Source: a virus (lineage: Duplodnaviria; Caudoviricetes). From it: a DNA stretch of 64,000 bases. The notes beneath the pieces were generated by a model. The model searched no databases. It was given only the letters and a program-made list of their open reading frames with translations, and had not been told where the DNA came from. The position numbers and the translations under genes were made by a program. Position 1 is the first letter of the stretch; each line of letters starts with the position of its first letter. Shown here piece after piece: positions 2,491 through 24,167 of this stretch. The stretch lies in the IMG/VR virus record IMGVR_UViG_3300013947_000019, positions 160,001 to 224,000 of that record; one strand, 5' to 3'.

Positions 2491-3705
2491 TCAAATAATA
2501 ACAATTGTCTTCATAGGTCTCTGAGAATCTAACTTACTCTCATCTATATCTGGTATACGAGGATCTTTATCCAATAGTACGACGGCTTGATCTACACCAG
2601 AATTTTTATTATGACAATTGTAAGACTGACCTTCACCAAATACATACATTTTAGATGTAGTTTCTTTTGGTGGTCTGCCAACTCGTTTACCATTCTTAGA
2701 TAACGTAGGTTTCTTTGGTTCTGACCTACGTATTAATTCAGTTGGCATATCTGTTCTATCATAGATAGATAGAGGAGGCATATTAAATTTTTCTCTAAAT
2801 TCTTTCTGCCTTTTATAGAGCATAGCTCTCTGTAGTGCTTCTTCTTCCTCTTTGGATAGCTCAGGTTTTTCTTCTCTTTCTTTCCTGTGACGTTCTCTGA
2901 GTTTACGTTCTTTTTCTGGATTATTTAATACATATTGATTATAGAAACCGATACCTTGTTCCAAACGTTCATTATCGAAAGTAATACCTTCAAAGTACTC
3001 TTTATCCAACATCAAATCTTCCAATCGTTCTGGATCCATTTCTCCAAATCGCTGATTTAGTTCATTGATTCTTCGATAGAAAGTTCTGTTAGACATACCA
3101 TATGCTTCATGACAAAATCTAAAAAGATCAGCTGTTGAGAACTCTTTCTTTTTCCACATGATAAAGATCTCCCAGAAATCATATGGCATTGGAATTTTCG
3201 GACGACCAATAGATACGATACGTTTTCTGCGTGCGGCATCAATTCCTTCTCGTTGTCTAGAGATCGTATTTTCACGCTCATTCTGTGCAACAAAAGATAA
3301 TACTTGAAGCATCATATCTGTAATAAATTTAGATATCAAATCTTCTGGATCACCAGTTGTATTCAACAATGGCATATCAATTACATAGATCCCACATCCA
3401 AGATCTTGTGTAATCATTCTCCATTGATCAATAATCTCTTGATAATTACGACCAAGTCTATCGATTGATTTGATTACGATAATATCCCCTTTGCGTAATA
3501 TTCGTATTAATTTCTTATAGGCTGGTCGGTTAAATGATTTGCCTGATTGTTTGTCTATGAAGATCTTGGTAGAACGTACACCATATTCCTCCATAGCAAT
3601 TTCTTGTCGATCTGTTTTCTGTTGTGTTGTAGAAACTCGACAATAGCCCCATACTTCACCCATGTCATTAATGAGATAGCCATCGTCACCCTTTTTAATA
3701 GCCAT
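2491..3705 (-). CDS. Serine recombinase (resolvase/invertase family) with HTH and long C-terminal extension
   Basis: Catalytic motifs GYCRVST..Q...RQ, DKQSGKSFNRP, IKSIDRLGRN, ER..I..RQREGI..A, GRP; HTH-like GMSNRTFYRRI; AT-hook-like KRVGRPPK. Confidence 0.93.
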   Translation of the reverse strand: MAIKKGDDGYLINDMGEVWGYCRVSTTQQKTDRQEIAMEEYGVRSTKIFIDKQSGKSFNRPAYKKLIRILRKGDIIVIKSIDRLGRNYQEIIDQWRMITQDLGCGIYVIDMPLLNTTGDPEDLISKFITDMMLQVLSFVAQNERENTISRQREGIDAARRKRIVSIGRPKIPMPYDFWEIFIMWKKKEFSTADLFRFCHEAYGMSNRTFYRRINELNQRFGEMDPERLEDLMLDKEYFEGITFDNERLEQGIGFYNQYVLNNPEKERKLRERHRKEREEKPELSKEEEEALQRAMLYKRQKEFREKFNMPPLSIYDRTDMPTELIRRSEPKKPTLSKNGKRVGRPPKETTSKMYVFGEGQSYNCHNKNSGVDQAVVLLDKDPRIPDIDESKLDSQRPMKTIVII

Positions 3706-3775: not shown

Positions 3776-4097
3776 GGATGAATTTTGTTTGCTCGGAGTT
3801 AACATAATAATACAATCGATTATGCCACTATTTTGAGAAATGGGTTGTTTTATTATACAACAAAACTGAATACAGTTCAAAAGTAAAGAAAAGTAGAAAG
3901 TTACAAAGATTGGTAATTGACAAATCGATGCGAAATTCTATATGAGTACAACTTAATATTTATTCTGGTAACTTTCAAGTGGCATAATCGTTTTATATAA
4001 TAAGAAGGATCCCCGGGACAACCCGGGGATTCCTTCCTTTTTAGATAATAGCTATACTTGTCTGGACACAAGACTTGAAAATACATTACCATGAATT

Positions 4098-4574: not shown

Positions 4575-4663
4575 CTGTACTTCACCCCCTTCATGGTATA
4601 GTATTTATATAGATGTTTTATGGAAAAAAGAAAAGGGTGGGGAATATCCCCACCCATAATCTT

Positions 4664-6035: not shown

Positions 6036-6085
6036 TGTATTGCATCTCCTCCTTTATATTAATTATAGGTTTGTTTTGATGTTTT

Positions 6086-6943
6086 TCAAAGAGTAAAATC
6101 ACCCAAAGACTGATATTCGTCAGGAACATGCTCTGGCTCTGGCATATCATCATCAGTCAATACAGCATTCTTATCCAGAGTGGGAGCAGTATTGAGATAC
6201 TCGATAAACTTCTCCTCTTCTTCAGTTACATCCAATACATAGGTATTAATAATATCCTTTATTTTCTGGATACTAAACCCGTATATCGACGCATTTGTAG
6301 AAGCACACAGAATAGTGCTGCACATCTTTTTGCTTACATTCGACAGAAGTATCGCTTTGGAAGATTTAATAAAGTCTTCTTCATCGATATAACTGTCAAA
6401 ATAGTCAAAATCATCTTTTGCTATCTTTACAAATACGCCATCATATGTAAGATCAAAAGCAGAAGAATCCTTGTCATACATATTACTAAGCCAATCAATA
6501 AGCTTAACTGCATTTTTGATATCTTTCTTATCCAGATCATCCTTAGAAGGAATAGATTCTGTTAAAGGATATACATTGATAGTCATATCAATATAGTGAT
6601 CATGAAATTCGTATTCTCCTTTAAAAGTATGCGTAGGATATTTTGCATTAAGATTACTAATAATCCCATATGCAAGCTTCATACCCTTTGCAATATTGAG
6701 TTCCCAAGGCAACTCATTGCTTTTAAATATGATTTTTGTGTATAGAGTAAGTTTATCATATCCATTAAACTTACTCGTACTATATCTGCGAAGCATTGTA
6801 ATACGCGCATACTTATCGTAGTATTTATCACGGTTATATCCATGCTTCACAGTTTCGCCATATACCATGCTAATGGTATTATATACCTGACCGAATATTT
6901 TCGATTCAGTTGTTTCAATTGGTCTTGTAGCTTTACTACGCAT
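6086..6943 (-). CDS. Hypothetical protein (285 aa)
   Basis: ORF with AAAGGA RBS. Confidence 0.7.
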   Translation of the reverse strand: MRSKATRPIETTESKIFGQVYNTISMVYGETVKHGYNRDKYYDKYARITMLRRYSTSKFNGYDKLTLYTKIIFKSNELPWELNIAKGMKLAYGIISNLNAKYPTHTFKGEYEFHDHYIDMTINVYPLTESIPSKDDLDKKDIKNAVKLIDWLSNMYDKDSSAFDLTYDGVFVKIAKDDFDYFDSYIDEEDFIKSSKAILLSNVSKKMCSTILCASTNASIYGFSIQKIKDIINTYVLDVTEEEEKFIEYLNTAPTLDKNAVLTDDDMPEPEHVPDEYQSLGDFTL

Positions 6944-6984
6944 TTTATATTCCTTTCATAATAAAGAAAGAAAAGGGACTGGAA

Positions 6985-8946: not shown

Positions 8947-8952
8947 TTGGCA

Positions 8953-9225
8953 TCACTCCTTTTCAGTACGAAGTTCAGGATGCGTAGCCCAGAACTGTTC
9001 ATATCTCTCCTGAAGAGATTTCTGAGCTCGCTTGACCAGAGTATTCAACTCTTCAGCAGTCGCTGCGCGGAGAATCGACTCAAGCTGATAGTTCTCAGAG
9101 ATCAGCTCATTGATCGATACATCCTTCTCTGCAACCTTCTTATGGAGAGCTTCGATCTGCTTCTTCAGATTTTCATTCTCCTCCAACTGGATCAGATACA
9201 TCTGATAGGAATTAACCTCACTCAT
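8953..9225 (-). CDS. Small coiled-coil protein
   Basis: ORF in operon, heptad pattern. Confidence 0.7.
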   Translation of the reverse strand: MSEVNSYQMYLIQLEENENLKKQIEALHKKVAEKDVSINELISENYQLESILRAATAEELNTLVKRAQKSLQERYEQFWATHPELRTEKE

Positions 9226-9547
9226 CTTTATTATCCTCCTTTTTGTATTCGTCTACATAGTAGATGTAATGCTTCAGTAAACCTTTACCTTCCAGGTAAT
9301 CACGGATTGCGAGTCCAGATTCATCCAGAAGACAAAGAATCCCAATGCAGTCCTCCAGATCGACAACTGCTTCATCGATCAACATCTCATAGATCTCCGT
9401 TTTCTTATCTTGAGCTTTGATCTTAATGCGGAGATTGGCATTTTCGAGAGTAAGTCGCTCAATCTCTTTTTTCTGCTCATAAAGCTTGCGCTTAACAACA
9501 TCTTCATGTTGTTTATACGTAAGCTCACCTTTACCACGACGACCCAT
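9218..9547 (-). CDS. Small coiled-coil protein
   Basis: AAGGAGGTG RBS. Confidence 0.75.
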   Translation of the reverse strand: MGRRGKGELTYKQHEDVVKRKLYEQKKEIERLTLENANLRIKIKAQDKKTEIYEMLIDEAVVDLEDCIGILCLLDESGLAIRDYLEGKGLLKHYIYYVDEYKKEDNKDE

Positions 9548-9559
9548 ATGGACACCTCC

Positions 9560-9844
9560 TTAGTATAGATCTTCAGAGAAGAGTTCAGTGCTTGCATGTT
9601 TATTTGCTAAAGTAGTAGCAGACAGCTGTCCACATTTCTTAGCAATAATATAAGCATCTTCTCTGGAATAGAACTTTCCTTCATGATCCAGAAATCCTTG
9701 TTCAACATCTCTCTTATCAATAAAGGTTCCAAACTTGCGAATAATATTGAGTTGAGCTAGACCATCGGCATGCCGGATGCAGCCAATAATAAGTTCAGTA
9801 TTCAGTATATGATTATGCCACTTAACTGCAGCACATACTATCAT
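9560..9844 (-). CDS. Phage hypothetical protein (IVCAA..RH..EQGF..F..R..A type)
   Basis: Motif pattern commonly seen in small phage proteins; AAGGAG RBS. Confidence 0.7.
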   Translation of the reverse strand: MIVCAAVKWHNHILNTELIIGCIRHADGLAQLNIIRKFGTFIDKRDVEQGFLDHEGKFYSREDAYIIAKKCGQLSATTLANKHASTELFSEDLY

Positions 9845-9846
9845 AA

Positions 9847-10305
9847 CTACTCCTTTCCATTCTGAGAAATCAAATTCGCAGCCTCAAAGAAAGGCTGCGT
9901 GATTTCATCAGCAATAACAAATTTTTTCTTAACCATCATAGAGATGATTTTCTCCCGACTCATATAGGGAACCATATCCCACATGATGATTGGTGTATTC
10001 TTTGTGATATTCCACACAAAGGTGCGTTTGATTTGTTCAGTCTTCGCAGATTGAAGTACAATTTTGATCAGCTTTTCAGCTTTATCAAAATGATCAGTCT
10101 GACCATCCGTGATCTTCTGAATATACATAGCACACATTTTGTAGAAGTCTCTTGGTCTGAGCACATTCCAAATATACCACTTAGAGATAAAGTACTTCTT
10201 ATATTCAGGAAGATCCAAAATATCATTAAGAAGCTTTTCAAACTCCTCATACTTACAGGAGTTCATTACTTGAATGATTCTCCTGTTCATTTTGATGATA
10301 CTCAT
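9847..10305 (-). CDS. Hypothetical protein (152 aa)
   Basis: GGAGG RBS; start overlaps the stop of the upstream small ORF. Confidence 0.7.
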   Translation of the reverse strand: MSIIKMNRRIIQVMNSCKYEEFEKLLNDILDLPEYKKYFISKWYIWNVLRPRDFYKMCAMYIQKITDGQTDHFDKAEKLIKIVLQSAKTEQIKRTFVWNITKNTPIIMWDMVPYMSREKIISMMVKKKFVIADEITQPFFEAANLISQNGKE

Positions 10306-10466
10306 ACTGGAACCTCCATAGGCATCCTCTCACCCACATAAGTAAACGTATCTTCCGGATGTGCTTTCTGATACTCATGTAATTCTGTCTTGGGAACACT
10401 CATCGTTTTCCCAAACTCCGAGATCATATAAAATCTCAGATTCTTCCCATATACATACCATTTCAT
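10302..10466 (-). CDS. Small 54-aa protein absent from the ORF track (MKWYVYGKNLRFY...MEVPV)
   Basis: AAGGAGG RBS; ATGA overlap with the next gene; first gene after the promoter motif at 10522. Confidence 0.7.
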   Translation of the reverse strand: MKWYVYGKNLRFYMISEFGKTMSVPKTELHEYQKAHPEDTFTYVGERMPMEVPV

Positions 10467-10521
10467 ATTGGTACCTCCTTATAAAATATGATAGAAAGTT
10501 TTCATTTACTTTCTTCACTTA

Positions 10522-10531
10522 TATAATATAT
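10522..10531 (-). promoter_or_regulatory. Putative early promoter ATATATTATA
   Basis: Repeated motif heading the operon that includes ppk1. Confidence 0.5.
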
Positions 10532-10608
10532 ACTTCAAATATAATTGCTTATCGGAACTAAAAGAGGAGACCTTTTCAGGCCTCCTCATATTTAGTGTTA
10601 ATTAGATA

Positions 10609-11847
10609 TTAGATTTTAACAAGTTTCTCCCAAGTAGCGGGATTTACTGTACCACGAGTAAAAACAGTACCAATTCTGAAGTCAGACTGGAATCTCTTCA
10701 GAGCTGCCATCATATTAGGACCAAATACACCATCCAATGTGCTAACATCATAGCCATTTGCGACAAGTAAACCCTGTGCAAGCATCGTCAATTTACCGCT
10801 GCATCCATAATGAAGAGTATCACAAGCAGCCTTTGTCTTCGGGCCCCAGATACCATCTACAGACAACTTAGCATTTACCTGACGATTTAATTCGGTCTGC
10901 AGTGCTTTAATAGTTCCCTTACGAGAAGCAGGGCCCCAGATACCATCAACAACAAGACCCGTCTTATATCCATTATTCAGCCAAGTCTGGAATTGTTTTA
11001 ACAAACGAATCTTAGTAGGTTGACAAACTTCTTCGGTAGGATCTTCTTTTTCATCTGTAGTAGGAGTAGTAGGTGTCGTCGGCTGAGTAGGAGTTACAAC
11101 AACAGGAGTAACCTTCTTCTTATGAGATTCCTGCAGAACCTTAATAGTAGCAGCACCAATAATACCATCAGCTTCCAACTTATTAGCAGTCTGGAACTGT
11201 TTCGTAGCATTCATAGAAGCAGGACCAAAAGCTCCATCAATACTGATATCATACTTCTGGATTAGCTTTAATTCAAACTGAGCCCAATATGCAGCAGTGC
11301 CAGTAGTACCATTCTTTACCAATGTAGGAACAGGGAAGGGATTATCCAAAGTCTCAATAGACTCATAAGGAAGAGCACCATAACCAGCAATGTAAGCGCT
11401 GGTAGTAGAATAGCTCTTATGGCGTACAGTACTATTGGTGGAGTTACCTTCAATCGTATATACAGTATTACCAACAACCTTCTCTACAAATCCTACATGA
11501 TGGAAAGTTCCATTACGTTGACCATTCCAATTAAAGAAGATCAGATCTGCAGGCTTAGGAGTATATGCAGTAGGACTCTTTCCAAACTTTGTAGGAATCA
11601 AGAACTCACGGTTTACAGTAGTACAACCAGCAAAGTTCGGGCAAACCCAAGTAGGAACATTGTTTGTACGCAGATGATAGGTAACAAAAATTGCACAATA
11701 TGGAGTACTTGACAAAGAGAAGTTCGTTCCACAAAGATTATTGTAATAACGAATAAACTCGTCATCACCAGTACCAGTACCACCAACAAGTCCAACACAC
11801 TTCATTGCAGCAGCGACAATTGTATCACGAATAGCAGCATAAGCCAT
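10609..11847 (-). CDS. Endolysin: CHAP domain plus peptidoglycan-binding repeats
   Basis: PYCAIFV (Cys), HHVGFV (His), TIEGNS; PG_binding_1-like DGAFGP/DGIWGP/DGVFGP repeats; PT-rich linker. Confidence 0.9.
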   Translation of the reverse strand: MAYAAIRDTIVAAAMKCVGLVGGTGTGDDEFIRYYNNLCGTNFSLSSTPYCAIFVTYHLRTNNVPTWVCPNFAGCTTVNREFLIPTKFGKSPTAYTPKPADLIFFNWNGQRNGTFHHVGFVEKVVGNTVYTIEGNSTNSTVRHKSYSTTSAYIAGYGALPYESIETLDNPFPVPTLVKNGTTGTAAYWAQFELKLIQKYDISIDGAFGPASMNATKQFQTANKLEADGIIGAATIKVLQESHKKKVTPVVVTPTQPTTPTTPTTDEKEDPTEEVCQPTKIRLLKQFQTWLNNGYKTGLVVDGIWGPASRKGTIKALQTELNRQVNAKLSVDGIWGPKTKAACDTLHYGCSGKLTMLAQGLLVANGYDVSTLDGVFGPNMMAALKRFQSDFRIGTVFTRGTVNPATWEKLVKI

Positions 11848-11895
11848 ATAAATGGCCTCCTTTCTATTTAATATACATATTAAAATATGGGAGGA

Positions 11896-12046
11896 ATAGC
11901 AGTCACCAGAATGTCATCTATATCACTTTTACAAGGAGGTAAAATGGCAAGACAAGCTTTCAAACGGTTCAGAGGAAAAGGAACAGAAAGGATGACAATA
12001 ACCTATAATATTCACTCATACTTATAGGGTTTCTGATGACTGCTAT
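11896..12046. ncRNA. Candidate structured RNA or regulatory leader
   Basis: 15/16-bp closing inverted repeat (11896-11911 / 12031-12046), nested TGTCATC/GATGACA, internal hairpins. Confidence 0.35.
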
Positions 12047-12072
12047 ATAGTAATGTCAAGCCGAAATAGCAC

Positions 12073-12086
12073 AACAATAGTATAAT
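12073..12086 (+). promoter_or_regulatory. Putative late promoter (ACA-N4-TATAA)
   Basis: AACAATAGTATAAT; the motif recurs about 13 times upstream of structural and lysis genes. Confidence 0.6.
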
Positions 12087-12116
12087 GACAACTAACGGAA
12101 GGAGGGACTTCTGATC

Positions 12117-12797
12117 ATGGGAATGAATCCAAGTACCTATAAACAAGTAGTAGAAAATATGGAAAAAGTTGCTCAGCTGGTTGATGAATTGAAAACATTA
12201 ACTGGTAAAGTTGATACTGATGAAGAGTCTATTAAAAGTCTTTCTGATAAGATCGATGCAATGTCCAAAGAACTTGGCGATCTGACTGATCTTCCGATGA
12301 CTGTGAAAGAGATGTATGATGTCATTAAGGAAGTTGAAGATAAAGTTCTGAATCCTGATCCTACTACGAACACTGGTGATATTGTCAGCACGGATGATGG
12401 AGTGAAGGTAGTTGGTGTTCATACGAATACCACTAATAAAGATTCTGACACTGCTCCTAATAGCTATAAGCAAGGCTTGACCCTTGAGTTGAAGAAAGCT
12501 GAAGTGATTGGACTGAAAGGACAGGATGGTATCACGAAGGATTATATCTTTGTGATTACGCTCAATCAAGATACTGCAATTGCCGGTGAAACCGCAGTTG
12601 CCAGTGGTAAGTATTCCATCCAGCAGATTGCTTACGGAGATACTGCTGGTATTGAATATTCTCGTGTGAGCACCAGTGATACAAAGTGGGGCGATTGGTC
12701 TAAGATGTCAGGTGAAGGCGGCAATCAGTTTGTACAATCTGATACTGAACCTACTGACCAAAAGGCTGGGGATTATTGGTGTGAGCCTATTAAGTGA
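12117..12797 (+). CDS. Putative virion/tail-fibre-associated protein
   Basis: Coiled-coil N-terminus, KWGDWSK motif, C-terminal DTEPTDQKAGDYW shared with the next gene. Confidence 0.65.
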   Translation: MGMNPSTYKQVVENMEKVAQLVDELKTLTGKVDTDEESIKSLSDKIDAMSKELGDLTDLPMTVKEMYDVIKEVEDKVLNPDPTTNTGDIVSTDDGVKVVGVHTNTTNKDSDTAPNSYKQGLTLELKKAEVIGLKGQDGITKDYIFVITLNQDTAIAGETAVASGKYSIQQIAYGDTAGIEYSRVSTSDTKWGDWSKMSGEGGNQFVQSDTEPTDQKAGDYWCEPIK

Positions 12798-12888
12798 TAA
12801 CTATAGAATCACTTAATATAAATTTAAGTTTCTGTTATGTACAATCACTCATGGGGTGACAATCTATGTAAAAAATTATGATTAAGGA

Positions 12889-14154
12889 GTGAATATTAAA
12901 ATGGCCAAGTATATTACTTATCGTTTTAAATCTTTCAATGGTACGGATTATGATACCTATCATCTGGAATCTCGTTCCAGCATGATCCTGCGTTTCAATT
13001 CTGATGGTGCTCAGCAGACTGGCGATAAGGCCACTGTTGAGTCTTCTCTGGCTGCTCTGGAGAGCACTGTTGCTGGTATTGTTTCTACTGGCGGCGAGAA
13101 AAATAAGATTAATGCTATCACTGCTAATGGTACCGCATGTACAATTACGGATACGACTGCTACGATTCCTGCTGCTACTGCTTCTGCTTGGGGTGTTGTT
13201 AAGGTTGATACTGCGCTGAATGCATCTTCTACCAACCCTGTTCAGAATAAGGCTATTAATACTGCACTGGGTCTCAAAGCTGATAAGACCACTCTGAATA
13301 GTTATATTCCCACTTCTAAGATGGGTATTGCCAGCGGTGTTGCTACTTTGGATACTACTGGTAAAGTTCCTTCTGCCCAGCTGCCTTCTTATGTTGATGA
13401 TGTTCTGGAATATGATAAGTTAGCTTCTTTCCCTGAAACTGGTGAGACTGGTAAGATTTACATTGCTAAGGATACCAACGTAACATATCGTTGGGGTGGT
13501 ACTGGGTATGTTGAGATCTCTGCTTCTCTGGCTCTGGGTACGACTTCTTCTACTGCTTACTATGGTGATAAGGGTAAGGTTGCTTATGAGCATTCCCAGT
13601 CTGCACATGCTCGTACAGATGCTACTGCTACTGCAGCTTCTACTAACAATGGTAAGATTAAGATTAATGGTAGTGATGTAACTGTTTATACGCATCCTGG
13701 CTATACTGCTAAGACTTCTGCTCTGTATAAGATCACGGTTGATGCGCTGGGTCATGTTTCTGCTACCGCTGCTGTTGCCAAGGGTGATCTGACTGGTATT
13801 ATTGGTAACTTTGGCGCTGCTTCTTCTTCTGCTGCTGGTTCTACCGGTCTGGTTCCTGCTCCTGCTAAGGGTGATCAGAGTAAGTTCCTGCGTGCTGATG
13901 GTACCTGGGTTGTTCCCACTGATACCAATACGGATACCAAGAATACTGCTGGTTCTACTAATGATGCAGCTAAGCTGTTCCTGGTTGGTGCTAAGAGTCA
14001 GGCGGCTAACCCGCAGACATTCTCTAACAGCAGTGTCTATGCTACTGCTGGTCGTATCTATAGTAATAATCGTATGGTTATTGATGTTCAGACCGGTAGC
14101 ACCCAGCCTACTAATCAGTCCGCTGGTGATCTGTGGTTTGAGACCGTTTCCTGA
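12889..14154 (+). CDS. Tail fibre-like structural protein (proximal fibre)
   Basis: GVATLD.TGKVPSAQLPSYVDDVLEY, STNPVQNK and KFLRADGTW modules typical of Firmicutes phage fibres; strongly biased codons; probable start ATG 12901. Confidence 0.75.
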   Translation: MNIKMAKYITYRFKSFNGTDYDTYHLESRSSMILRFNSDGAQQTGDKATVESSLAALESTVAGIVSTGGEKNKINAITANGTACTITDTTATIPAATASAWGVVKVDTALNASSTNPVQNKAINTALGLKADKTTLNSYIPTSKMGIASGVATLDTTGKVPSAQLPSYVDDVLEYDKLASFPETGETGKIYIAKDTNVTYRWGGTGYVEISASLALGTTSSTAYYGDKGKVAYEHSQSAHARTDATATAASTNNGKIKINGSDVTVYTHPGYTAKTSALYKITVDALGHVSATAAVAKGDLTGIIGNFGAASSSAAGSTGLVPAPAKGDQSKFLRADGTWVVPTDTNTDTKNTAGSTNDAAKLFLVGAKSQAANPQTFSNSSVYATAGRIYSNNRMVIDVQTGSTQPTNQSAGDLWFETVS

Positions 14155-14171
14155 TTTATTTCGAGTTTATA

Positions 14172-14196
14172 TAGGGGACTCGTTTTGAGTCCCCTA
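14172..14196 (+). terminator. Intrinsic terminator
   Basis: TAGGGGACTC / GAGTCCCCTA stem. Confidence 0.65.
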
Positions 14197-14215
14197 ATCG
14201 AAAAAGAATAACATA

Positions 14216-14229
14216 AACGTTTTTATAAT
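14216..14229 (+). promoter_or_regulatory. Late-promoter variant upstream of the fibre expression locus
   Basis: AACG-TTTT-TATAAT, one mismatch to ACA-N4-TATAA. Confidence 0.45.
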
Positions 14230-14253
14230 ACAATAAATTTATAAAAGGAGTGA

Positions 14254-15462
14254 ATGCACATGGCGACGTTAAAGCAGCGGCTGAATCGCAAGAACTCCAG
14301 TGGAACGTATGATACCGTTTATCTGGAGACTTCTTCCGAAGTCGTTAAAAGACCGTCTGGTACGACGGTTGAAAGTGATTTAACCAATTATCTGCCAAAA
14401 GTCCAAGACTCGGATTCTGTGCCAGAAAGCCTAACGCACGGCCAGCTCTGTACTGGCCTAAATAAGGGTTTCTTGAGACTTAATAATTCTACAATACAAT
14501 TAGCGAGTCAATCTAGTATAGATACTCTTAGTGGTAATATATCTACAATAAACAATGAAATATCAAGTTTAAAATCCTCTGTCAGTAATGGCAAAAGTTT
14601 AATTGCCGCAGCGGTAACTGACAAGGGAGTACCAACCGCTGCATCTGATAGTTTTACTACTATGAGTAATAATATCAGAAAGATTAATGATCCAGTACCA
14701 GTTCAATCTCTTCCTGAAGGATATACCCAGGTTAATTATATATTAACAGATGGAAAAGCTTATATTGATAGCGGAATATCTAACTTTTTGATACGTTCAT
14801 TAATAACTAATACAAACTGGTATCAGCATTTTTCGCTTAGGTATATATTTTCTATACCAAACGCAGATACTATACCAGATGTATCTCTTGTTACAGATGC
14901 TTTTAGAATATTTGGTAATACTGTATTTAATATTAGTTGTTACAAAAATACAACTGGATACAGCAATAATAGTATATCTAAATGCGATGAAAATGATAAT
15001 AAACGATTTACAATACGATTATATCCAATTGCGACAGATTCATATGTAATCAATACTCTTATAACAACACTAAGTGATACTATAATTGATTATAAACTTA
15101 TGTCAAGTGTAGGATATGGTGGAGGAAACTATTATTGTAATATGCAAAATTATATAGGTAATACAAGCACAGGATCCAATATAGAAACGAAAAGAATGGG
15201 TAATGATTCTAATTCTTTCTATCTTGGACGAGGATTAGTATCAAGAATGCCCGAATCTATACCATCTAAAATTTATCTATTTAATTTATCATATTGTCCT
15301 AGAGATATTACTCCTCAAAACTATAATCCAGCAACTGATATTATAGAATATTCTAATATGATACCTTGCATTAATCCTTCTGGTGAAGTCGGAATGTATG
15401 ACACGGTAAGACAACGATTCTTTGGTAATGCTAACACTGAAGGTAGTTTTACTTATGGATAA
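14254..15462 (+). CDS. Tail fibre/receptor-binding protein at the expression locus (constant ~62-aa N-terminus plus variable cassette)
   Basis: AAAGGAG RBS; N-terminus LKQRLNRKNSSGTYDTVYLET; from G63 (GQLCTGLNKG) nearly identical at DNA level to the start of cassette 52519..54021. Confidence 0.85.
   Translation: MHMATLKQRLNRKNSSGTYDTVYLETSSEVVKRPSGTTVESDLTNYLPKVQDSDSVPESLTHGQLCTGLNKGFLRLNNSTIQLASQSSIDTLSGNISTINNEISSLKSSVSNGKSLIAAAVTDKGVPTAASDSFTTMSNNIRKINDPVPVQSLPEGYTQVNYILTDGKAYIDSGISNFLIRSLITNTNWYQHFSLRYIFSIPNADTIPDVSLVTDAFRIFGNTVFNISCYKNTTGYSNNSISKCDENDNKRFTIRLYPIATDSYVINTLITTLSDTIIDYKLMSSVGYGGGNYYCNMQNYIGNTSTGSNIETKRMGNDSNSFYLGRGLVSRMPESIPSKIYLFNLSYCPRDITPQNYNPATDIIEYSNMIPCINPSGEVGMYDTVRQRFFGNANTEGSFTYG
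14422..14445 (+). repeat. Putative recombination site in the expression locus
   Basis: CCAGAAAGCCT-AACGCAC-GGCCAG, same register as the cassette sites (CCRGA-N4-CT-N7-GGC). Confidence 0.7.
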
Positions 15463-15499: not shown

Positions 15500-15796
15500 T
15501 TAGCTTTGTTTAGTAGCATTGGCTTTTAGCCATGTGAAAAACACATCAGAACAAGTTGCACCTTCAGAGAATGTAATAGTGTGATCAGAACCATTCCATC
15601 TCTTAGTATCAAAGTAATACAATGTTTTTCCACCAACCCCAGCATTTAAACTTACATCTCTGTTTGAAACTGGATCAATAACTATGCTTGTATATTTGGA
15701 GCCAGCATGTGTTACATCTATCTTCTCAGTGAGTTTAGCCTCAGTAGGATATAATGTATCATTTAACAGCCAAGTACCAGCTAATGTTACAGTCTC
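15500..15796 (-). pseudogene. Start-less 98-codon continuation of the 669-aa fibre in the -1 frame (ETVTLAGTWLLN...FFTWLKANATKQS)
   Basis: Fills the gap to the terminator; joins 15787..17796 if one extra G is added at GGG 15796-15798. Confidence 0.65.
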
Positions 15797-17796
15797 CCGC
15801 TAAGAGAAATATCAATACAAATATGAGGTCTGAATCCTAAGGTTACGCTATAATGATTACTACTAATAGCGCCATCACTATCAACTGAATCATTATACCC
15901 AGATGAAGATGAAGTAAGAGCCCACCAATAAGAAGCTTCTCCCTTGTATCTACAAATACGATTAGCATTATTTTTATAATAACTAAATCCGCTATTTAAT
16001 TGTGTTCTTGATGGTAAAAATACCTTTCCAGTATAGCTATCTATAGTTTGAGCTACCATATAATTTTGAGCAGTACTAGAGAAATTAGAAAGATATTCTG
16101 TACATTTAGTAGTTAATACTGTAGATGTACATTCTTCAACGATAGTACTATTAGCCAAATACCATTTCGTTCCCTCATTATGAACTACTAAGAAGCTCTT
16201 ATCATCAAACGTTACGGTATTACCAACAACAAGATCACCAGTCAGAGGAATATTAGTAGATTGAGGCTTTGCTTTTCGAATACAAACAATACCTGAACCA
16301 CCTTTGCCGCCAGAAGAATAACTTGCTGAATTAGTACCTTGACCGCCGCCACCACCACCACCAGTATTAGCCATTCCTGCACCTGCTGGATATTTATAGT
16401 TTCCTCCATTACCTCCTCCACCTTTACCACCAGAACCTGCACCACCATTTACATCATAATCAGCGATATTAGTAGAGTTGCATCCTCCACCACCTCCGCC
16501 TGCGTACAGCTTACCGGAAGATTCTCCAAATTCTCTAGTGGTAGTACCTTGACCAGATCCAGCAGAAGTACTTGCACCATCAGAACCACCTTTACCACCA
16601 GTATATGCACCACCATCACCACCAGCAGAGCCTCCATCAGCAGTAGTAGAATTAGTTCTTCCTCCCTTACCACCATTAGCTGAAAGAATATTACCAAAAC
16701 TTGTAGTTTCTCCATTAGATCCAGTAGAACCATTAGCTCCACCATTACCAATTGTGACATCAATTCTTGTATTTGCTGTAATTTTATTATTAAGACGTGT
16801 AGCAGTATATCCTCCTCCTCCACCAGAAGATCCGGAAGTACTAGAGCGATTTCCGCCTCCTCCACCGCCACCAACACAGAAAATATCAATATTATTATCA
16901 TCTAATAATTTAAACTCACCAGAACTTAATAACTCAACAACACCATCTTCAAATCGAATTCGATAATCACCAGTATAAGTAAAATCAAGCCCAGAGTTAT
17001 TGATATTAATTACAATATGCGGACGGAAGCCATTCCCTAATGTTGGAGTAGAACTTCCAGTTATTTCACCAGATGCATATACATAACGCATACCATTAGA
17101 AGATGTCCCATATCTATCTGACATCCACCAAGCTCTAGCTGAATCATTATAATTACAAATACGGTTTGTATTGCTATTATAATACTCAAATCCTCCATTA
17201 CACTGATCATATGTAGGAACAAATACCTTAGCAGTAACATATTCCACAGTTACATCTAAGCAGTATTCCTTAGCAATAGTACTTAGCTGCTCACTCTCAT
17301 ATGTACTAGCAACATTAGCAAGTGTAGAATTTTTATATGCTAAGTTTCCAGTGCTAAAAGAAGTTATACTATAGATATCTTTTGCGGCTAAATACCAATG
17401 TGTACCTTCCTGATGAACAACTCTCCAAGATTTATTGTCAAAGGTGACCAAGTTGCCAACTGCCAAGTCACCAACCAAAGGGATAAAGTCATTACGGAAG
17501 TCAACAAAGTAGTCGACTGTACCACTCTTGATAGTCACTGTCTTGCTGACAGTCTTTCCACCAACGGTACCGGTAATAGACCATTCTCCTTCAGGGTTAT
17601 CTTCAGGAAGTGTGATCTTTGCTGCACCAATAGAACTGATATATTTACTATCTACAGATACACCATCTTTTACTGCAGTAAAAGTAGTAGTTGTAGCTAC
17701 TGTAGGAATAGTTAACCAAATTGAATACGTACCACCAACAGTTGAACCAGAGGTGGCATATCCAATCGATATAGCATTACCATATATGATAGCCAT
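15787..17796 (-). CDS. Receptor-binding/fibre protein: two DUF6273/C-type-lectin-like repeats flanking a glycine-rich domain
   Basis: Duplicated IPL.GDL.VGN.VTFD.KS..VVH.EGT.WYLA...WW...GFRPHI; Gly-rich VGGGGGGG...TTREFGESSGKLYAGGGGG...GSGIVCIR. Confidence 0.75.
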   Translation of the reverse strand: MAIIYGNAISIGYATSGSTVGGTYSIWLTIPTVATTTTFTAVKDGVSVDSKYISSIGAAKITLPEDNPEGEWSITGTVGGKTVSKTVTIKSGTVDYFVDFRNDFIPLVGDLAVGNLVTFDNKSWRVVHQEGTHWYLAAKDIYSITSFSTGNLAYKNSTLANVASTYESEQLSTIAKEYCLDVTVEYVTAKVFVPTYDQCNGGFEYYNSNTNRICNYNDSARAWWMSDRYGTSSNGMRYVYASGEITGSSTPTLGNGFRPHIVININNSGLDFTYTGDYRIRFEDGVVELLSSGEFKLLDDNNIDIFCVGGGGGGGNRSSTSGSSGGGGGYTATRLNNKITANTRIDVTIGNGGANGSTGSNGETTSFGNILSANGGKGGRTNSTTADGGSAGGDGGAYTGGKGGSDGASTSAGSGQGTTTREFGESSGKLYAGGGGGGCNSTNIADYDVNGGAGSGGKGGGGNGGNYKYPAGAGMANTGGGGGGGQGTNSASYSSGGKGGSGIVCIRKAKPQSTNIPLTGDLVVGNTVTFDDKSFLVVHNEGTKWYLANSTIVEECTSTVLTTKCTEYLSNFSSTAQNYMVAQTIDSYTGKVFLPSRTQLNSGFSYYKNNANRICRYKGEASYWWALTSSSSGYNDSVDSDGAISSNHYSVTLGFRPHICIDISLSGRL

Positions 17797-17867
17797 ATAA
17801 AATGGACCTCCTTTTTATATATTAAAATAGATAGGGTAGTGCTGGATGCACTACCCCACTTTTATAT

Positions 17868-19223
17868 TTAAATAGTAACCCAAGTTTCAGATGAGTCATT
17901 ATATAATTTAGCTTCCTGGGGTTGCGCTAAACCATTCTCATCACCAATATATACTGCATCTATACCCAATTCTAATTGTGTATCTGAATTATTAATAGCT
18001 TTCCACATATTAGTACTTGAATTACTTTTAATTAATAGATGATTATATTTAAGTGGAGGATTTATTGTAAAAGATGAATAAAATCCTGCAGATCTAACAC
18101 CGTGTAACAACATAACACCATTTCTAACATTCATACTATTTTCATAATCACAAATATATGGTATAGTAAGAGTTAATTTCTCAAATGTGTTATTAGTTGT
18201 ATTAAATTTATAACAGTAATCACAAGTATTTATGCCTGCTCCACCCATATCATAAAAATTCGTCATAGACTTAAAATAATATATATAATCGCCCATTACA
18301 TACACTTTACCAAATGCTACACTCTCTGGTATAGTAGCAACAACTGATATACTATTAGATGTTAAATCATACATACGTACTGAATTTACAGAATAATCAT
18401 AGTCTTGGCGATATCCAGTTGTTCCACCAAACATATACAAATATCTATTATCTTTTATACAAACTGCTTGACCACAGTATCTATAAGTAGATGTATCATA
18501 CCTAATACGCGTAAAAGTGTCTGTTGTTGTATCAAATTTATTTATATTACCATTCGTATAATTATAATCAGAACCTTCATAACCTCCAACCAAATAGATA
18601 TCTGTACCATTTCTACAACAACCCATAAGAGCAGAACTAGATAAAAATGTACTATTATCTACTTTAGTTAATGTTGGAGAATCAGTATTTGTGCCATCTA
18701 TTTTAATATATGATCTAAATGAAGCTTGTGAATAACCATTTATACCACCAAAGGAATATAATTTATGACCAACTCCTACTAGACTTACACCCCAAGAATA
18801 CGGAATTCCATAAGTGGTTAATGATGATCCATTATCTGAAATAGCCACATAAAATGTTAATTCTCCAGTATTAATATTTAATTTACAAATATTTACACCA
18901 GAATATGTAGTGCTATTTTTTGAATATTGATAATAAACATAACAAAATACACCATCATCATTATCAGCAATAGATATTATCTGATAAGAAGTAGGCGTAT
19001 TTGAAAATCCAGTAGAATTTAGTGTATATTTAAATTGCTTAATAGTATTATTGCTTAAATCAACATTGGGGGTAATTTGTATATTTATTGGATTAATACC
19101 ACTGCACCATAGTTTACTCGTATCACTCGGAGGAGTAGAACCATAATCAATATTCAATTGCACTCCTTTATTAGCACGGCTACCACCACGAATAGTAACA
19201 CCATTACCCATGATAGTTCCCAT
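17868..19223 (-). CDS. Kelch/beta-propeller receptor-binding protein
   Basis: Kelch-type LYSFGG, IYLVGG and LYMFGG repeats. Confidence 0.75.
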   Translation of the reverse strand: MGTIMGNGVTIRGGSRANKGVQLNIDYGSTPPSDTSKLWCSGINPINIQITPNVDLSNNTIKQFKYTLNSTGFSNTPTSYQIISIADNDDGVFCYVYYQYSKNSTTYSGVNICKLNINTGELTFYVAISDNGSSLTTYGIPYSWGVSLVGVGHKLYSFGGINGYSQASFRSYIKIDGTNTDSPTLTKVDNSTFLSSSALMGCCRNGTDIYLVGGYEGSDYNYTNGNINKFDTTTDTFTRIRYDTSTYRYCGQAVCIKDNRYLYMFGGTTGYRQDYDYSVNSVRMYDLTSNSISVVATIPESVAFGKVYVMGDYIYYFKSMTNFYDMGGAGINTCDYCYKFNTTNNTFEKLTLTIPYICDYENSMNVRNGVMLLHGVRSAGFYSSFTINPPLKYNHLLIKSNSSTNMWKAINNSDTQLELGIDAVYIGDENGLAQPQEAKLYNDSSETWVTI

Positions 19224-19224
19224 C

Positions 19225-19671
19225 TTACTTCACCTCCGAAACAGTAACTAAAACTGTTACATCAGTTTCAGGAACAGCATCCATACATTCAGCATGAATA
19301 GTACCATCCACATTCAAGAACTGCAGAAAGCTACTACCAGCATCCAAGAATGCGCCATATGCAACCGTGTTCAGAGTAGGATCAATCTTACTCTTAGCAG
19401 TAGTACCAGCAATGGTAACATTCTGACTATATACGACTTGATTACCACTATCAGTTCCTTCTGTCCAACTATCAGCTTTTAATACAACTTCGATATATGG
19501 ATCCTTTGTTGCATCCTTTGTAGCAAAGGTTTCAAGCTTTTGACTGACCGTTGTATTATCTGTTTCTGACATGATAACTGCATCGGCTGTAGTCTCTAAA
19601 CGGACGACATCATAACTGCCCTCCGCGTTCCTTCTGTGTAATCTCTGTTTTAGAACGGCCATTTTCACCAC
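19225..19671 (-). CDS. Fibre adaptor; paralogue of the expression-locus N-terminus
   Basis: MAVLKQRLHRRNAEGSYDVVRLET; own AAAGGAAAG RBS. Confidence 0.75.
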   Translation of the reverse strand: MVKMAVLKQRLHRRNAEGSYDVVRLETTADAVIMSETDNTTVSQKLETFATKDATKDPYIEVVLKADSWTEGTDSGNQVVYSQNVTIAGTTAKSKIDPTLNTVAYGAFLDAGSSFLQFLNVDGTIHAECMDAVPETDVTVLVTVSEVK

Positions 19672-19729
19672 TTTCCTTTCTAAAACCCCTTCAGAGGGTA
19701 GTTTAGAGCAAAATGCACTTTTGGACTTT

Positions 19730-19753
19730 ATCTGCCAAAAACTAGAAAATCGG
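19730..19753 (-). repeat. Degenerate cassette site G
   Basis: CCGATTTTCT-AGTTTTT-GGCAGA, same spacing as site D. Confidence 0.55.
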
Positions 19754-19767
19754 ATCGATTAAGATAT

Positions 19768-20403
19768 TTACCATGCATAACAATTAAATCCAATAGTTGC
19801 TAATTCATTTTTAATAGCTGATGTCATACCACCGGTTATTAATAAATATCGAGAATAATTAGCATTAAAATTACCACTAGGATATCCACCAATAAAATAA
19901 TTTATAGTTTCACCAGATTCTAATTTTAGTGTAATATAATTCCAATATGGGTCATATACTGTCATACTAGTAAATTTAGTAAGAGGAGATATGTATGTGT
20001 TATTGCTTCCTAAATATACTGAATATGTTGCAGTTAAATATCCTGATATAGTATATGTTTTATCTAAATGATTAGAAGGCATACTACGAGTATATAACTC
20101 TCCAATATATTGAATGACTAATCCTTGATTTATATTCCTGATATTACTAGCCATTTGCGAGAAGGCAGTAGAAGCTGCTGTGCTAACACCTTTGTCAGTA
20201 ATCGCACTCGCAATCTGCGCCTTCCCGCTACTGACAGATGTTTTTAGTTCGTTATATTGAGCTACTGTAACATATGTACCATTGTGGTTATGATTCGCTG
20301 CTGCATAATTGCCCTTAGGCTGGTAGTTTTCTGGTTTAATGATCCGGCCAGTACCATCATATCCTTTGTATATCAATCCGGTTTGACCTGTCACAAGCTG
20401 GCC
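19768..20403 (-). CDS. Silent fibre C-terminal cassette A (GQLVTGQTGLIYKG...)
   Basis: No RBS; in-frame TGA 15 nt upstream of the GGC codon; carries the SVSSGK..IASAITDKGV repeat. Confidence 0.75.
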   Translation of the reverse strand, partial: GQLVTGQTGLIYKGYDGTGRIIKPENYQPKGNYAAANHNHNGTYVTVAQYNELKTSVSSGKAQIASAITDKGVSTAASTAFSQMASNIRNINQGLVIQYIGELYTRSMPSNHLDKTYTISGYLTATYSVYLGSNNTYISPLTKFTSMTVYDPYWNYITLKLESGETINYFIGGYPSGNFNANYSRYLLITGGMTSAIKNELATIGFNCYAW

Positions 20404-20421
20404 GGATTTCAGAAATCACGG
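20398..20421 (-). repeat. Cassette site A
   Basis: CCGTGATTTCT-GAAATCC-GGCCAG. Confidence 0.8.
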
Positions 20422-20431
20422 CAAGAGAAGA

Positions 20432-20454
20432 ACCTCCCCTATTTTAGGGGAGGT
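20432..20454 (-). terminator. Terminator immediately upstream of site A
   Basis: ACCTCCCCT / AGGGGAGGT stem followed by TTCTTCTCTT on the minus strand. Confidence 0.75.
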
Positions 20455-20461
20455 GTTCTTT

Positions 20462-20629
20462 TTAACCAGCTATATTTTCAGGGTACTTCTCATCCAGTAG
20501 ATCACAAAGTTCACTATACTGATCTTCAGTAAGTCTCTTCTTAGCATAAAACATATCCAGACGTTCCTGTGCTTCTTCTCGAGTTTTATAGAAATGACGA
20601 TTAATTAAAATCTTCATAGATCTATACAT
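20462..20629 (-). CDS. Small 55-aa XkdX-like fibre-associated protein absent from the ORF track
   Basis: MYRSMKILINRHFYKTREEAQERLDMFYAKKRLTEDQYSELCDLL...; GGGGAGG RBS; typical position after a fibre chaperone. Confidence 0.65.
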   Translation of the reverse strand: MYRSMKILINRHFYKTREEAQERLDMFYAKKRLTEDQYSELCDLLDEKYPENIAG

Positions 20630-20632
20630 AAA

Positions 20633-20944
20633 TTATTCCTCCCCTAAGTCAGTAATATCTTCTTGATATACAGATTCAACTGTTTCAGCAAGAGATTGTT
20701 CGAGTTCTGTAGCATCATCGATAGCCTTCTGCTCAGCAGTTTTTACCTCAACACCATCTCGATAAAATTTATTTTCATTAAGATTATATTGATCACCCAC
20801 TGCAGCAGGAATTGATCCAAGACATTTACAATTTGGAAACTCGGGAGCATTTTCATCCGCCATCCAAATAATGTTAGTGACAATATTATTCTCATCTAAT
20901 AAAGCATAATTCTGTACTAGATTATGATTTTCAACTGCATACAT
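20633..20944 (-). CDS. Tail fibre assembly/chaperone-like protein
   Basis: YALLDENNIVTNII...AAVGDQY..F motif; follows a Gly-rich fibre gene. Confidence 0.6.
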   Translation of the reverse strand: MYAVENHNLVQNYALLDENNIVTNIIWMADENAPEFPNCKCLGSIPAAVGDQYNLNENKFYRDGVEVKTAEQKAIDDATELEQSLAETVESVYQEDITDLGEE

Positions 20945-20971
20945 TAAAATATTACTCCTTTCTTATTTTAA

Positions 20972-22027
20972 TTAACGCGCATTACGGATACAAACTATAC
21001 CTGAACCACCAGCACCACTATTGCGCCTAATTAATTGATTTTCAGGATTACTTCTAAAGTATCCTCCACCGCCACCACCAGATCCAGTATTGATAGTGCC
21101 ACCAGTTACATCTCTAATTAATCCTCCAGTATCTTTATGTCCCTCGTATACCTGAAGACCCTGTCCACCGCCACCATTTCCAGGAAAAGTATCACGTAAA
21201 TGCATAGCTGCACCACCTCCACCAGCATATAACTTACCTGTAGCTTCTCCAAATTCTCTGGTGGTGGTACCTTGACTTGTACCAAAATACTTTTTACCTA
21301 GTGTTCCTGTATATGGTGCAGCAGATCCTTCACTAGGATTACTATATGATAATCCACCATCAGACCCGCCATACATTGTAAATATACGTTGAGATAATGT
21401 ACTACCCGTTACACTTGGAGCACCAGATGATCCGCCATTAGATGCAGTGGTATTTGCCATTGTTAAATTCTTAGCAGTTGCAGCGGTTCCACCGTTTACA
21501 CTATATGATCCAAATGATGTCATTCCTCCATTATTTCCAGGTGTGTAATCGCTAGCATCATTATCAGTATTATATGCAGCAGATTCACCACCTGCACCAA
21601 TTATAATTTTAAAAGTATTACCTTTAGTTATAGATAATGATCTAACAGTTTTAGTATAACCAGAGCCGCCACCATGTCCACCCATACCATTAGAACTGCC
21701 CATAGCATAACCAACACCACCAGAAGCTCCACCACCAACCATAAATACATCAATCTTACTAGCAGTATTTCCAAGATCACCTATAGTTAACGTTCCACTA
21801 GTTTTGAAACGAATGACAAAATTTCCTTCTAAGTTTCCTTCAGTAGCATAACTGCCAGTATAAGTAAAAGCAAACGGTGTGCTAGCAGAGTAAAATAATC
21901 TGGCTTTTCCACCTACACCAATATATGCTTTCTGCACCTTTCTTGCCTTACCATTTACACCAATATAGATATTCTTTACTAATCGTGCCTTACTGCTCAC
22001 ACCAATATATAAATTAGCCATCTCCAA
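20972..22027 (-). CDS. Glycine-rich receptor-binding/adhesin protein
   Basis: Triple YIGV.GKAR N-terminal repeat; Gly-rich domain IDVFMVGGG...TTREFGE.TGKLYAGGGG...GSGIVCIR. Confidence 0.75.
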   Translation of the reverse strand: MEMANLYIGVSSKARLVKNIYIGVNGKARKVQKAYIGVGGKARLFYSASTPFAFTYTGSYATEGNLEGNFVIRFKTSGTLTIGDLGNTASKIDVFMVGGGASGGVGYAMGSSNGMGGHGGGSGYTKTVRSLSITKGNTFKIIIGAGGESAAYNTDNDASDYTPGNNGGMTSFGSYSVNGGTAATAKNLTMANTTASNGGSSGAPSVTGSTLSQRIFTMYGGSDGGLSYSNPSEGSAAPYTGTLGKKYFGTSQGTTTREFGEATGKLYAGGGGAAMHLRDTFPGNGGGGQGLQVYEGHKDTGGLIRDVTGGTINTGSGGGGGGYFRSNPENQLIRRNSGAGGSGIVCIRNAR

Positions 22028-22042
22028 TACACCTCCAATAAT

Positions 22043-22417
22043 TTAGCTATACTGAAGATAGATTCTACCGGTAGTAAGAGCTGTTGTTCCAGAAGTCATT
22101 GCACTTGTTCCTGCATAAATTGCTCTAGCAGAAGCTGTACCAACAGCTGTATCTAAAGTTGTCTGACCTGTACCACCTCTTGCTACTGCTAATGTACCAC
22201 TGGTAATATTAGCAGCTGAATGATTGTGAGAAGCTGCTGCATAGCTACCAGCTGGCTGTTTTCCATTAATAGCAGTATCCATGCTAGCAATTTTTGAACT
22301 AAGCAAAGTATTGTCTGTATCTGACATCTTGATCACAGTGGCAATAGTTTCAAGATATATGATATCATAGGTACCGCTATCATTTTTCCTATTTAATCTT
22401 TGTTTCAAGATAGCCAT
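22043..22417 (-). CDS. Fibre adaptor; paralogue of the expression-locus N-terminus
   Basis: MAILKQRLNRKNDSGTYDIIYLET; H-N-H and GTLAVARGGTG fibre motifs; AAAGGAG RBS. Confidence 0.8.
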   Translation of the reverse strand: MAILKQRLNRKNDSGTYDIIYLETIATVIKMSDTDNTLLSSKIASMDTAINGKQPAGSYAAASHNHSAANITSGTLAVARGGTGQTTLDTAVGTASARAIYAGTSAMTSGTTALTTGRIYLQYS

Positions 22418-22455
22418 AGTTGGGCTCCTTTCTAGAAATGAATGCTTCCACCAGA

Positions 22456-22479
22456 TTGGCCCAACTTCAGAAAATCCGG
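22456..22479 (-). repeat. Cassette site B
   Basis: CCGGATTTTCT-GAAGTTG-GGCCAA; 23 bp identical to site F. Confidence 0.8.
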
Positions 22480-22504
22480 TCTATGGTGAATAAAAGAAAA
22501 AGAA

Positions 22505-22530
22505 TACCCCTGGGAATATTCCCAGGGGTA
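22505..22530 (-). terminator. Terminator upstream of site B
   Basis: 12-bp perfect stem TACCCCTGGGAA / TTCCCAGGGGTA plus U-tract. Confidence 0.8.
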
Positions 22531-23802: not shown

Positions 23803-23933
23803 ATCTATAACTCTCCTTTCGAGATAATACTATTAGGAAGTCTATTATAGGTATGTCAAAATCATGTTTTTGTACAAAAATGTTATATTTAATAGAAACC
23901 CCCTCTCCAATAATTGGAGAGGGGTGATTAATT

Positions 23934-24167
23934 TTATTCAGTAGGATTGTTCAAATAATCCAGATATGCAGCGAGTGCTTCTTCAGGAGTATTGAACTCT
24001 TTATTCAGAGTATCTTCAATAACCAATACTCTATCAATATTGGTGATATATCCGCGACGACCAGTGCAGATAACATCCTCATTCTCGTAGTTAAAATTCT
24101 TAATACCAAGAGCTATACGTGCATCAGGAGCAGTCTCCCCAGCTTTAACAACATAACCAGTATACAT
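23934..24167 (-). CDS. Small cassette-linked protein, probable fibre chaperone; paralogue of 52271..52504
   Basis: GYV.K.GETA.D.RIAL.IKNF.YEN.DVIC.G.RGYIT shared with its paralogue; AAGGAGG RBS. Confidence 0.75.
   Translation of the reverse strand: MYTGYVVKAGETAPDARIALGIKNFNYENEDVICTGRRGYITNIDRVLVIEDTLNKEFNTPEEALAAYLDYLNNPTE

Follow-up and report, generated by a model that had tools for sequence, protein, structure and literature searches.

We analysed a 64,000-nucleotide (nt) stretch of DNA, hereafter the window, that covers bases 160001-224000 of the 259,863-bp single-contig genome of a gut jumbo phage (IMG/VR record IMGVR_UViG_3300013947_000019), the contig ends of which overlap. Its tail-fibre locus comprises a fibre gene at an expression site, E, and a set of stored cassettes behind recombination sites. 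Two of these, B and G, are very probably whole-gene cassettes of a genome-wide serine-recombinase tail-fibre inversion switch and would be turned on at E. In natural recombinants the sites are joined exactly at a shared dinucleotide, the constant fibre frame runs into a stop behind the junction, and the whole operon has moved as a unit. An earlier note on this stretch, made from the sequence alone, had proposed that recombination here works as promoter capture; natural G-on and B-on genomes give direct support to the DNA step of that proposal, and for the expression step the evidence is the layout of the locus. The note had counted two cassettes of this kind. Both are real, and the genome has three: the third, the DGR cassette, lies left of the window.

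The expressed fibre gene at E is 14254..15462 (plus strand). The elements of the switch are the following.

14260..14430, plus strand: constant fibre N-terminus, 57 amino acids (aa), MATLK...SVPES, from ATG 14260; identical in natural fused and truncated forms
14431..14432, plus strand: expression site E, crossover dinucleotide CT; natural recombinants change partner within 14431-14433
14211..14229, plus strand: ACAT-N9-TATAAT, a promoter-like element 25 nt upstream of the gene at E; late-motif position weight matrix (PWM) score 10.4
22456..22482, minus strand: site B, CCGGATTTT CT GAAGTTGGGCCAA, core CT 22470-22469; junction at 22470 in the relatives L034, L038 and L039
19732..19757, minus strand: site G, CCGATTTT CT AGTTTTTGGCAGA, core CT 19745-19744; six left arms share this right arm, each joined to it exactly at the CT

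Natural genomes carry G or B at the expression site

Searching with the truncated constant peptide of a 258-kb relative (L019) yielded 43 clusters with matches of 50-116 aa. Most are constant N-termini that end soon after ...PES, and five (P0039-P0043) are whole adaptors like the product of the 124-aa gene of B; the clusters hold further members, some on 240-258-kb contigs. The whole-gene state, with its truncated open reading frame (ORF), is common in nature within this phage family, and the many truncated peptides indicate that mixing translational and whole-gene cassettes is a regular design. Together, the natural truncated and fused forms bear out the earlier suggestion that one system combines both types. 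Counting fused against truncated forms with a longer-protein search (25 clusters) proved unreliable because of limited candidates.

One cluster, P0006 (62 aa, ...SVPESLVFGR), is exactly the stub predicted for G. Ten contigs, drawn from nine samples or more, encode it, and in all of them genes for proteins of 145 aa, 452 aa (Kelch) and 707 aa (DUF6273/Gly-rich) follow. These G-on contigs are 99.6-99.9% identical to window 6260-14433 and continue at 98-99% identity with 19745->19107, through the junction ...GTGCCAGAAAGC-CT-AGTTTTTGGCAGATAAAG. Looking up the identical 145-aa protein showed that, in near-identical strains, one and the same combination of G adaptor gene and right arm follows six left arms: that of E (EL); the arm after the 208-aa cassette c208 (the window state); the arm of site 54017 (s6); the arm of the site of c231, a 231-aa cassette that lies left of the window; the arm belonging to the site of the DGR cassette; and an arm absent from this genome. 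The flanks match the corresponding places of the window genome at 97-99%, and the flank with the s6 arm is 99.3% identical to window 56447->54029. Since all six combinations break exactly at the CT, site G is active and the G operon moves as one unit.

For B, two clusters (P0004 and P0044; 84 aa, ...ESLKLGQSGREAF...) are stubs of the B type, in which the frame is lengthened by a 2-nt difference in the leader. On L038, a 21-kb contig with flanks of about 85% identity, E leads through the 84-aa stub to genes of 124, 348 (Gly_rich_2), 103 and 55 aa, followed by a terminator and the next site. Its junction is exact, window position 14432 being joined to 22470, and L034 and L039 have the same junction. 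The exact B-on stub of the window strain was not found among the called proteins. In the natural G-on and B-on contigs alike, inversion has placed the whole gene set behind the conserved promoter-like element of E.

Further whole-gene cassettes stand behind sites in L019 and L041. In L041, a 248-kb relative, positions 3860-7480 hold tandem whole-gene cassettes of 116 and 319 aa, then site B with genes of 124, 349, 103 and 55 aa, and no terminator lies between. In L025 the far end of the G-on inverted block (13270-13467) bears the left arm and terminator of site 54017, not those of G. This rules out a single inversion relating L025 to the window and points to more than one inversion or to a duplicated arm unit.

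The constant frame stops behind both sites and a new gene restarts

When E and site B are joined at CT 14431-32/22470-69, the constant frame reads LKLGQSGGSIHF and stops; when E and site G are joined at CT 14431-32/19745-44, it reads LVFGR and stops. Both stops agree with the earlier reading of the frames, which had also placed behind each site a ribosome-binding site and a restart gene with a paralogue of the constant N-terminus, as we likewise find for B and G. In B, AAAGGAG stands 8 nt before ATG 22417, and the product is MAILKQRLNRKNDSGTYD, of 124 aa. In G the restart gene is real, and its start needs correction: GTG 19671 came from the ORF list, and gene callers and alignment favour ATG 19662 (MAVLKQRLHRRNAEGSYD, 145 aa).

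The 260-kb genome holds four copies of this anchor module, at E, B, G and the DGR cassette. All three extra copies begin 55-85 nt behind a switch site, so the arrangement is not a product of chance. The adaptors match the constant part over their first 30-50 residues only and are without the hinge motif of the fusion cassettes. These differences give a reason why such fibres need an N-terminus of their own.

Sites and point of exchange

The ten sites follow a common pattern, CCGGATTTT-CT-GAAATCCGGCC, and are short imperfect dyads in inverted orientation. On the minus strand of the window they read CCGGATTT(T)-CT-GA[A/G]nTnnGGCCAG, the first G of GGCCAG lying at 20403, 22461 (site B), 25800, 49923, 51555 and 54021; site G, near 19745, has an unusual right arm, and two further sites lie left of the window. 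At E, as in the cassette sites, the CT is followed by 7 nt and then GGCCAG, so that exchange keeps the frame for headless cassettes.

All natural junctions fall at the CT. Two other crossover points were considered and rejected, since natural junctions put the exchange at 14431-33: the CT of 'GATTCTGTG' (14417-18), from which fusions would also be out of frame, and a position inside GGCCAG.

The left arm of E (TGCCAGAAAGC; window 14420-14445) is nearer to the reverse complement of the right arm of G (TGCCAAAAACT; 19732-19745) than either is to the common arm (GGCCGGATTTC), which makes the G-on expression site a near-perfect dyad. This arm also resembles hix/gix half-sites. The EL pattern gave no match in viral contigs. 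An exact 20-nt copy of the E left arm is present on a 31.7-kb metagenome contig (L020, Ga0172379_10002542; 3526-3545, minus strand) inside an unrelated long ORF (...TDSVPESLYIF...), where it may be a chance match or a remnant.

The cassettes encode adaptors and probable distal proteins

The genes of the two cassettes and the terminator that closes B are as follows, all on the minus strand.

22043..22417: B gene 1, 124-aa adaptor, N-terminal paralogue plus a piece of fibre shaft; weak match to the R2-pyocin tail fibre (E 0.0016)
20972..22027: B gene 2, 351-aa Gly_rich_2 protein (PF21722, 5e-15)
20462..20944: B genes 3 and 4, small accessory proteins of 103 aa and 55 aa (phrog_14370 and phrog_2310, both of unknown function)
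20432..20454: bidirectional terminator closing the B operon
19225..19662: G gene 1, 145-aa adaptor (148 aa if read from GTG 19671); AlphaFold2 model with pLDDT 88
17868..19223: G gene 2, 451-aa Kelch beta-propeller (PF24681, 1.7e-13)
15787..17796: G gene 3, 669-aa Gly_rich_2 and DUF6273 protein; accompanies G in switched-on contigs as a 707-aa allele

The B cassette extends over 22470->20462. Its 351-aa protein is the probable distal binding part, as suggested by its family and by 38% identity to the Gly-rich part of the translational cassette 48667..49944. The order of the 103-aa and 55-aa genes is kept in the B-on relative L038. A chaperone role had been proposed for them, which we find unsupported: the two proteins match only PHROGs of unknown function, and a Pfam search that included XkdW/XkdX gave no support for a chaperone.

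The G operon had been described as the adaptor gene and the 451-aa gene. Both belong to it, and the description was incomplete, as the 669-aa gene belongs too and the cassette extends over 19745->15787. The 669-aa gene is preceded by a hairpin (17831-17859) that may attenuate its transcription. In the AlphaFold2 model of the G adaptor, a hairpin and a helix at the N-terminus are combined with a beta-sandwich at the C-terminus, and fold searches with the model gave no clear match (Foldseek E >= 0.16, VIA-align Z <= 5.3). PDB sequence searches with the fibre proteins gave weak matches only. The relation to fibre families is likewise weak (phrog tail-fibre families 1e-8 to 4e-3; R2-pyocin fibre as above), and the context of the locus, with endolysin, Gly_rich_2, DUF6273 and Kelch, would fit a fibre locus; the endolysin gene adjoins the fibre genes.

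In L022, L044, L045, L047 and L049 and at window 17868-19223, the identical 145-aa adaptor is followed by four Kelch alleles (451, 452, 456 and 390 aa) that are 24-51% identical, in flanks that are 98-99% conserved. The divergence of the alleles within such flanks indicates that the binding protein is replaced by ordinary recombination as well. Downstream, window 15500-15799 (minus strand) holds an open frame of 99 codons in which the first ATG, GTG or TTG comes only 40 codons before the end. It shares the final 13 nt of the 669-aa gene, read in a different frame, and gave no family match; it may represent either an extension reached by frameshifting or a gene that starts in an unusual way.

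Promoters and terminators around the stored cassettes

Two phage promoter motifs were derived genome-wide, ACATnnnTATAAT and TTTGAGATATATAYTATATAAGTGA. Intergenic matches make up 27 of 45 for ACATnnnTATAAT, and most of these lie 20-80 nt before a gene; examples of the two motif classes are at 23844-23856, 12044-12056, 10531 and 29446, all on the minus strand. Matches of the sigma-70 type were not above expectation in the region (78, versus 65 +/- 8 in shuffled sequence). The elements next to the stored cassettes, again on the minus strand, are these.

23844..23856: strong late-type promoter motif ACATACCTATAAT, serving the 420-aa gene that lies upstream of site B; PWM 18.4, the highest of the region
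22505..22530: terminator, hairpin plus T-run, ending the transcript of the 420-aa gene just before site B; 11 pairs, 7 of them G-C, tail TTCTTTTTCT
19768..20417: translational cassette c208, including its own site; site G follows immediately

The late-promoter motif is absent in front of B and G, as first noticed in the earlier reading: the late-motif PWM reaches maxima of 6.0 (B) and -1.1 (G), versus a training minimum of 12.6, and TTTGAGATATATAYTATATAAGTGA was not found before B or G either. The ACAT-N9-TATAAT element of E is 100% conserved in relatives whose flanks are 83-85% identical. It has two copies in the genome, the one before the E gene and one in the leader of the DGR cassette (genome 148411, minus strand), which may thus carry its own promoter copy; the B leader resembles the DGR leader minus the TATAAT part. 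A hairpin with T-run stands just upstream in four of the five stored positions of G. In the window, G lies directly behind c208 without a terminator in between, so that a c208-on state should co-transcribe G. Taken together, this arrangement of motifs and terminators suggests that stored B and G would be silent and that expression at E is probably driven by the E promoter.

Presumed recombinase of the switch

The enzyme of the switch would be the product of one gene.

2491..3705, minus strand: serine recombinase, 404 aa, presumed invertase (PF00239, 2.7e-29; phrog_125 'DNA invertase', 8e-50)

Its best PDB matches are Sin/Bin3 (7e-26), gamma-delta resolvase (1e-18) and Gin (2e-12). A genome-wide search gave one Resolvase match, making this serine-type enzyme the sole site-specific recombinase of the genome, and no tyrosine recombinase was found in the genome. 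We infer from this that the gene encodes the recombinase acting on E and the cassette sites.

Proposed mechanism and alternatives

The recombinase would pair E (CT 14431-32, plus strand) with site B or site G, which have the same core on the minus strand, and invert the intervening DNA, which measures 8.0 kb with site B and 5.3 kb with site G. The constant ORF would then stop after 12 (B) or 5 (G) more codons, leaving a stub of 62-84 aa, and the cassette genes would come to lie downstream of the promoter-like element of E, to be translated from their own ribosome-binding sites. Each cassette would supply first an adaptor that brings along its own N-terminal anchor and then separate distal proteins, namely a Gly-rich protein and two small proteins from B, and a Kelch propeller and a Gly-rich/DUF6273 protein from G. 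The outcome would be a multi-subunit fibre that replaces the single-chain fusion fibre.

Several points weigh against this reading. The recombinase gene sits 11 kb from E, and its sequence is nearer to Sin and the resolvases than to Gin. B-on arrangements were found in relatives of about 85% identity only, and in six of six contigs with the identical 124-aa gene B is stored behind the 420-aa gene. The states were compared between contigs. The PWM score of the E element (10.4) is below those of canonical late promoters (at least 12.6), the promoter set is motif-based and could have missed a third promoter class, and read-through of the hairpin 22505-22530 from the promoter at 23856 could express stored B to some extent.

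The last points lead to the alternative that survives best, which we consider improbable: the operons would be expressed wherever they lie, from an unrecognised promoter or by read-through, and recombination with B or G would only shut off the fusion fibre, a null state of the constant gene. Knowledge of the promoters comes from motifs, the strong late promoter at 23856 aims at B with only a hairpin between, G is without a preceding terminator in the window, and one whole-gene cassette may drive itself, given the E-type ACAT-N9-TATAAT in the DGR leader. The same element is, however, missing from the leaders of B and G, that of B being the DGR leader minus TATAAT; terminator hairpins stand before B and before four of the five stored G positions; in the window, the cassette that precedes G has a terminator in front of it; and with constitutive operons up to four anchors would compete for one docking site in every state.

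It is very unlikely that the strain arrangements arose by homologous recombination between terminator-plus-site repeats or cassette paralogues, without a site-specific invertase. Units of terminator plus left arm are duplicated, and the Kelch alleles behind the same adaptor have evidently been exchanged in this way. Yet the left arm of E (GTGCCAGAAAGC) has no homology to the left arms of the cassettes (CCGGATTTT) and all junctions are nevertheless on the same CT, the genome's only site-specific recombinase is of the serine type, and short imperfect dyads like these sites are what enzymes of this type would be expected to use. Slightly less probable still is that site G is a decayed relic and G a mere passenger operon of c208: the right arm AGTTTTTGGCAGA fits the consensus poorly and no terminator precedes the site, but the G-on contigs and the six junctions, E among them, in near-identical strains refute decay as the sole explanation, and right arms of the class L-x-F-G-R/K/T are common at E in relatives. 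Co-transcription of G with c208 at E may come in addition.

If B and G are whole-gene cassettes of an inversion switch, a further and more tentative idea is that through the switch the virion alternates between two fibre architectures: one is the single-chain fusion, the other a multi-subunit fibre with its own anchor and adaptor. This is possible, though we think it rather doubtful, as are the states with two fibre sets and the action of the stub on assembly that go with it. Cassettes without a terminator between them (c208->G in the window; 116/319 aa->B in L041) would then give two fibre sets from one promoter in some states. The anchor stub of 62-84 aa, made in each whole-gene state, could act on assembly, for instance by competing for or capping docking sites.

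Comparison with known inversion systems

The fibre inversions of Mu, P1, p15B and Rin are textbook cases in which only the C-terminal tip is exchanged in frame; in Mu, the accessory genes U/U' lie inside the segment and are expressed by transcriptional fusion. Min (plasmid prophage p15B), Gin (Mu G segment), Cin (P1 C segment) and Rin all exchange C-terminal parts by fusion (PMC6109161). The system described here is like Min, Gin and Cin in its short dyad sites with a 2-bp core, in its small serine recombinase with an N-terminal catalytic domain, and in having one constant 5' part and one promoter for several stored alternatives; the variable 3' parts of seven translational cassettes fuse in frame to that constant part. 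It differs at B, G and the DGR cassette, where the constant frame stops instead of fusing: in Min, Gin and Cin the main fibre is always a translational fusion, whereas these three cassettes bring a complete anchored fibre gene and cut the constant ORF to a stub. Instead of a compact invertible segment with an adjoining recombinase gene, the cassettes are dispersed to the left and right of E across some 65 kb (sites at genome 148.4-214.0 kb), with the recombinase gene 11 kb off. The carrier also differs, being a jumbo phage of the lytic type, 260 kb in size, that encodes pieces of a multisubunit RNA polymerase of its own.

The Rin shufflon of Bifidobacterium prophages is likewise a multi-cassette switch of receptor-binding proteins in gut phages with natural inversion variants (Mavrich et al. 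2018, PMC6109161). Unlike the system at E, it uses a tyrosine recombinase, an asymmetric 11-bp site and only C-terminal (translational) cassettes in a compact locus (PMC6109161).

Surface-antigen inversions of Mycoplasma (M. pulmonis vsa) join a promoter site to silent genes (PMC4534519). They resemble the switch at E in having a single promoter-bearing expression site and site-specific inversion to promoterless silent genes, which stored B and G would also be. They differ in that they concern bacterial lipoprotein genes, use tyrosine recombinases and, in vsa, fuse the promoter together with an N-terminal coding part; truncation of a resident ORF with restart of a paralogous full gene is not described for them. 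The vsp genes of M. bovis and the vpma genes of M. agalactiae undergo the same kind of surface-antigen inversion.

A survey of gene-altering programmed inversions describes stored copies without the upstream part and has tail fibres among its enriched families (Milman et al. 2023, PMC9881135). Both there and here, one upstream gene part has several downstream versions exchanged at inverted repeats; unlike there, some stored copies here keep the full upstream part and their own ribosome-binding site, and the site lies before the gene, not inside it. In the literature that we found, no fibre switch is described that combines in-frame tips with complete restart operons and leaves the resident ORF truncated; the present one is a variant of known switches. 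It would widen the exchange range of one inversion switch from a domain to a whole fibre architecture, with multi-gene modules that have their own anchor. It would also explain many of the short 'hypothetical' ORFs beside fibre genes in gut jumbo-phage genomes and, for phage host-range studies, would offer a model from nature of how receptor-binding modules that differ in build can be exchanged behind a single promoter.

Other observations

A Megablast comparison of the window with GenBank phages gave no match, and the 421-aa upstream protein, encoded at 12889..14154 and searched in viral contigs, found distant relatives only. Two 77-aa genes on the minus strand, 23934-24167 and 52271-52504, are 66% identical to each other, and each follows a translational cassette (532 aa and 501 aa, respectively). 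Their position indicates that the fusion cassettes, too, carry passenger genes.

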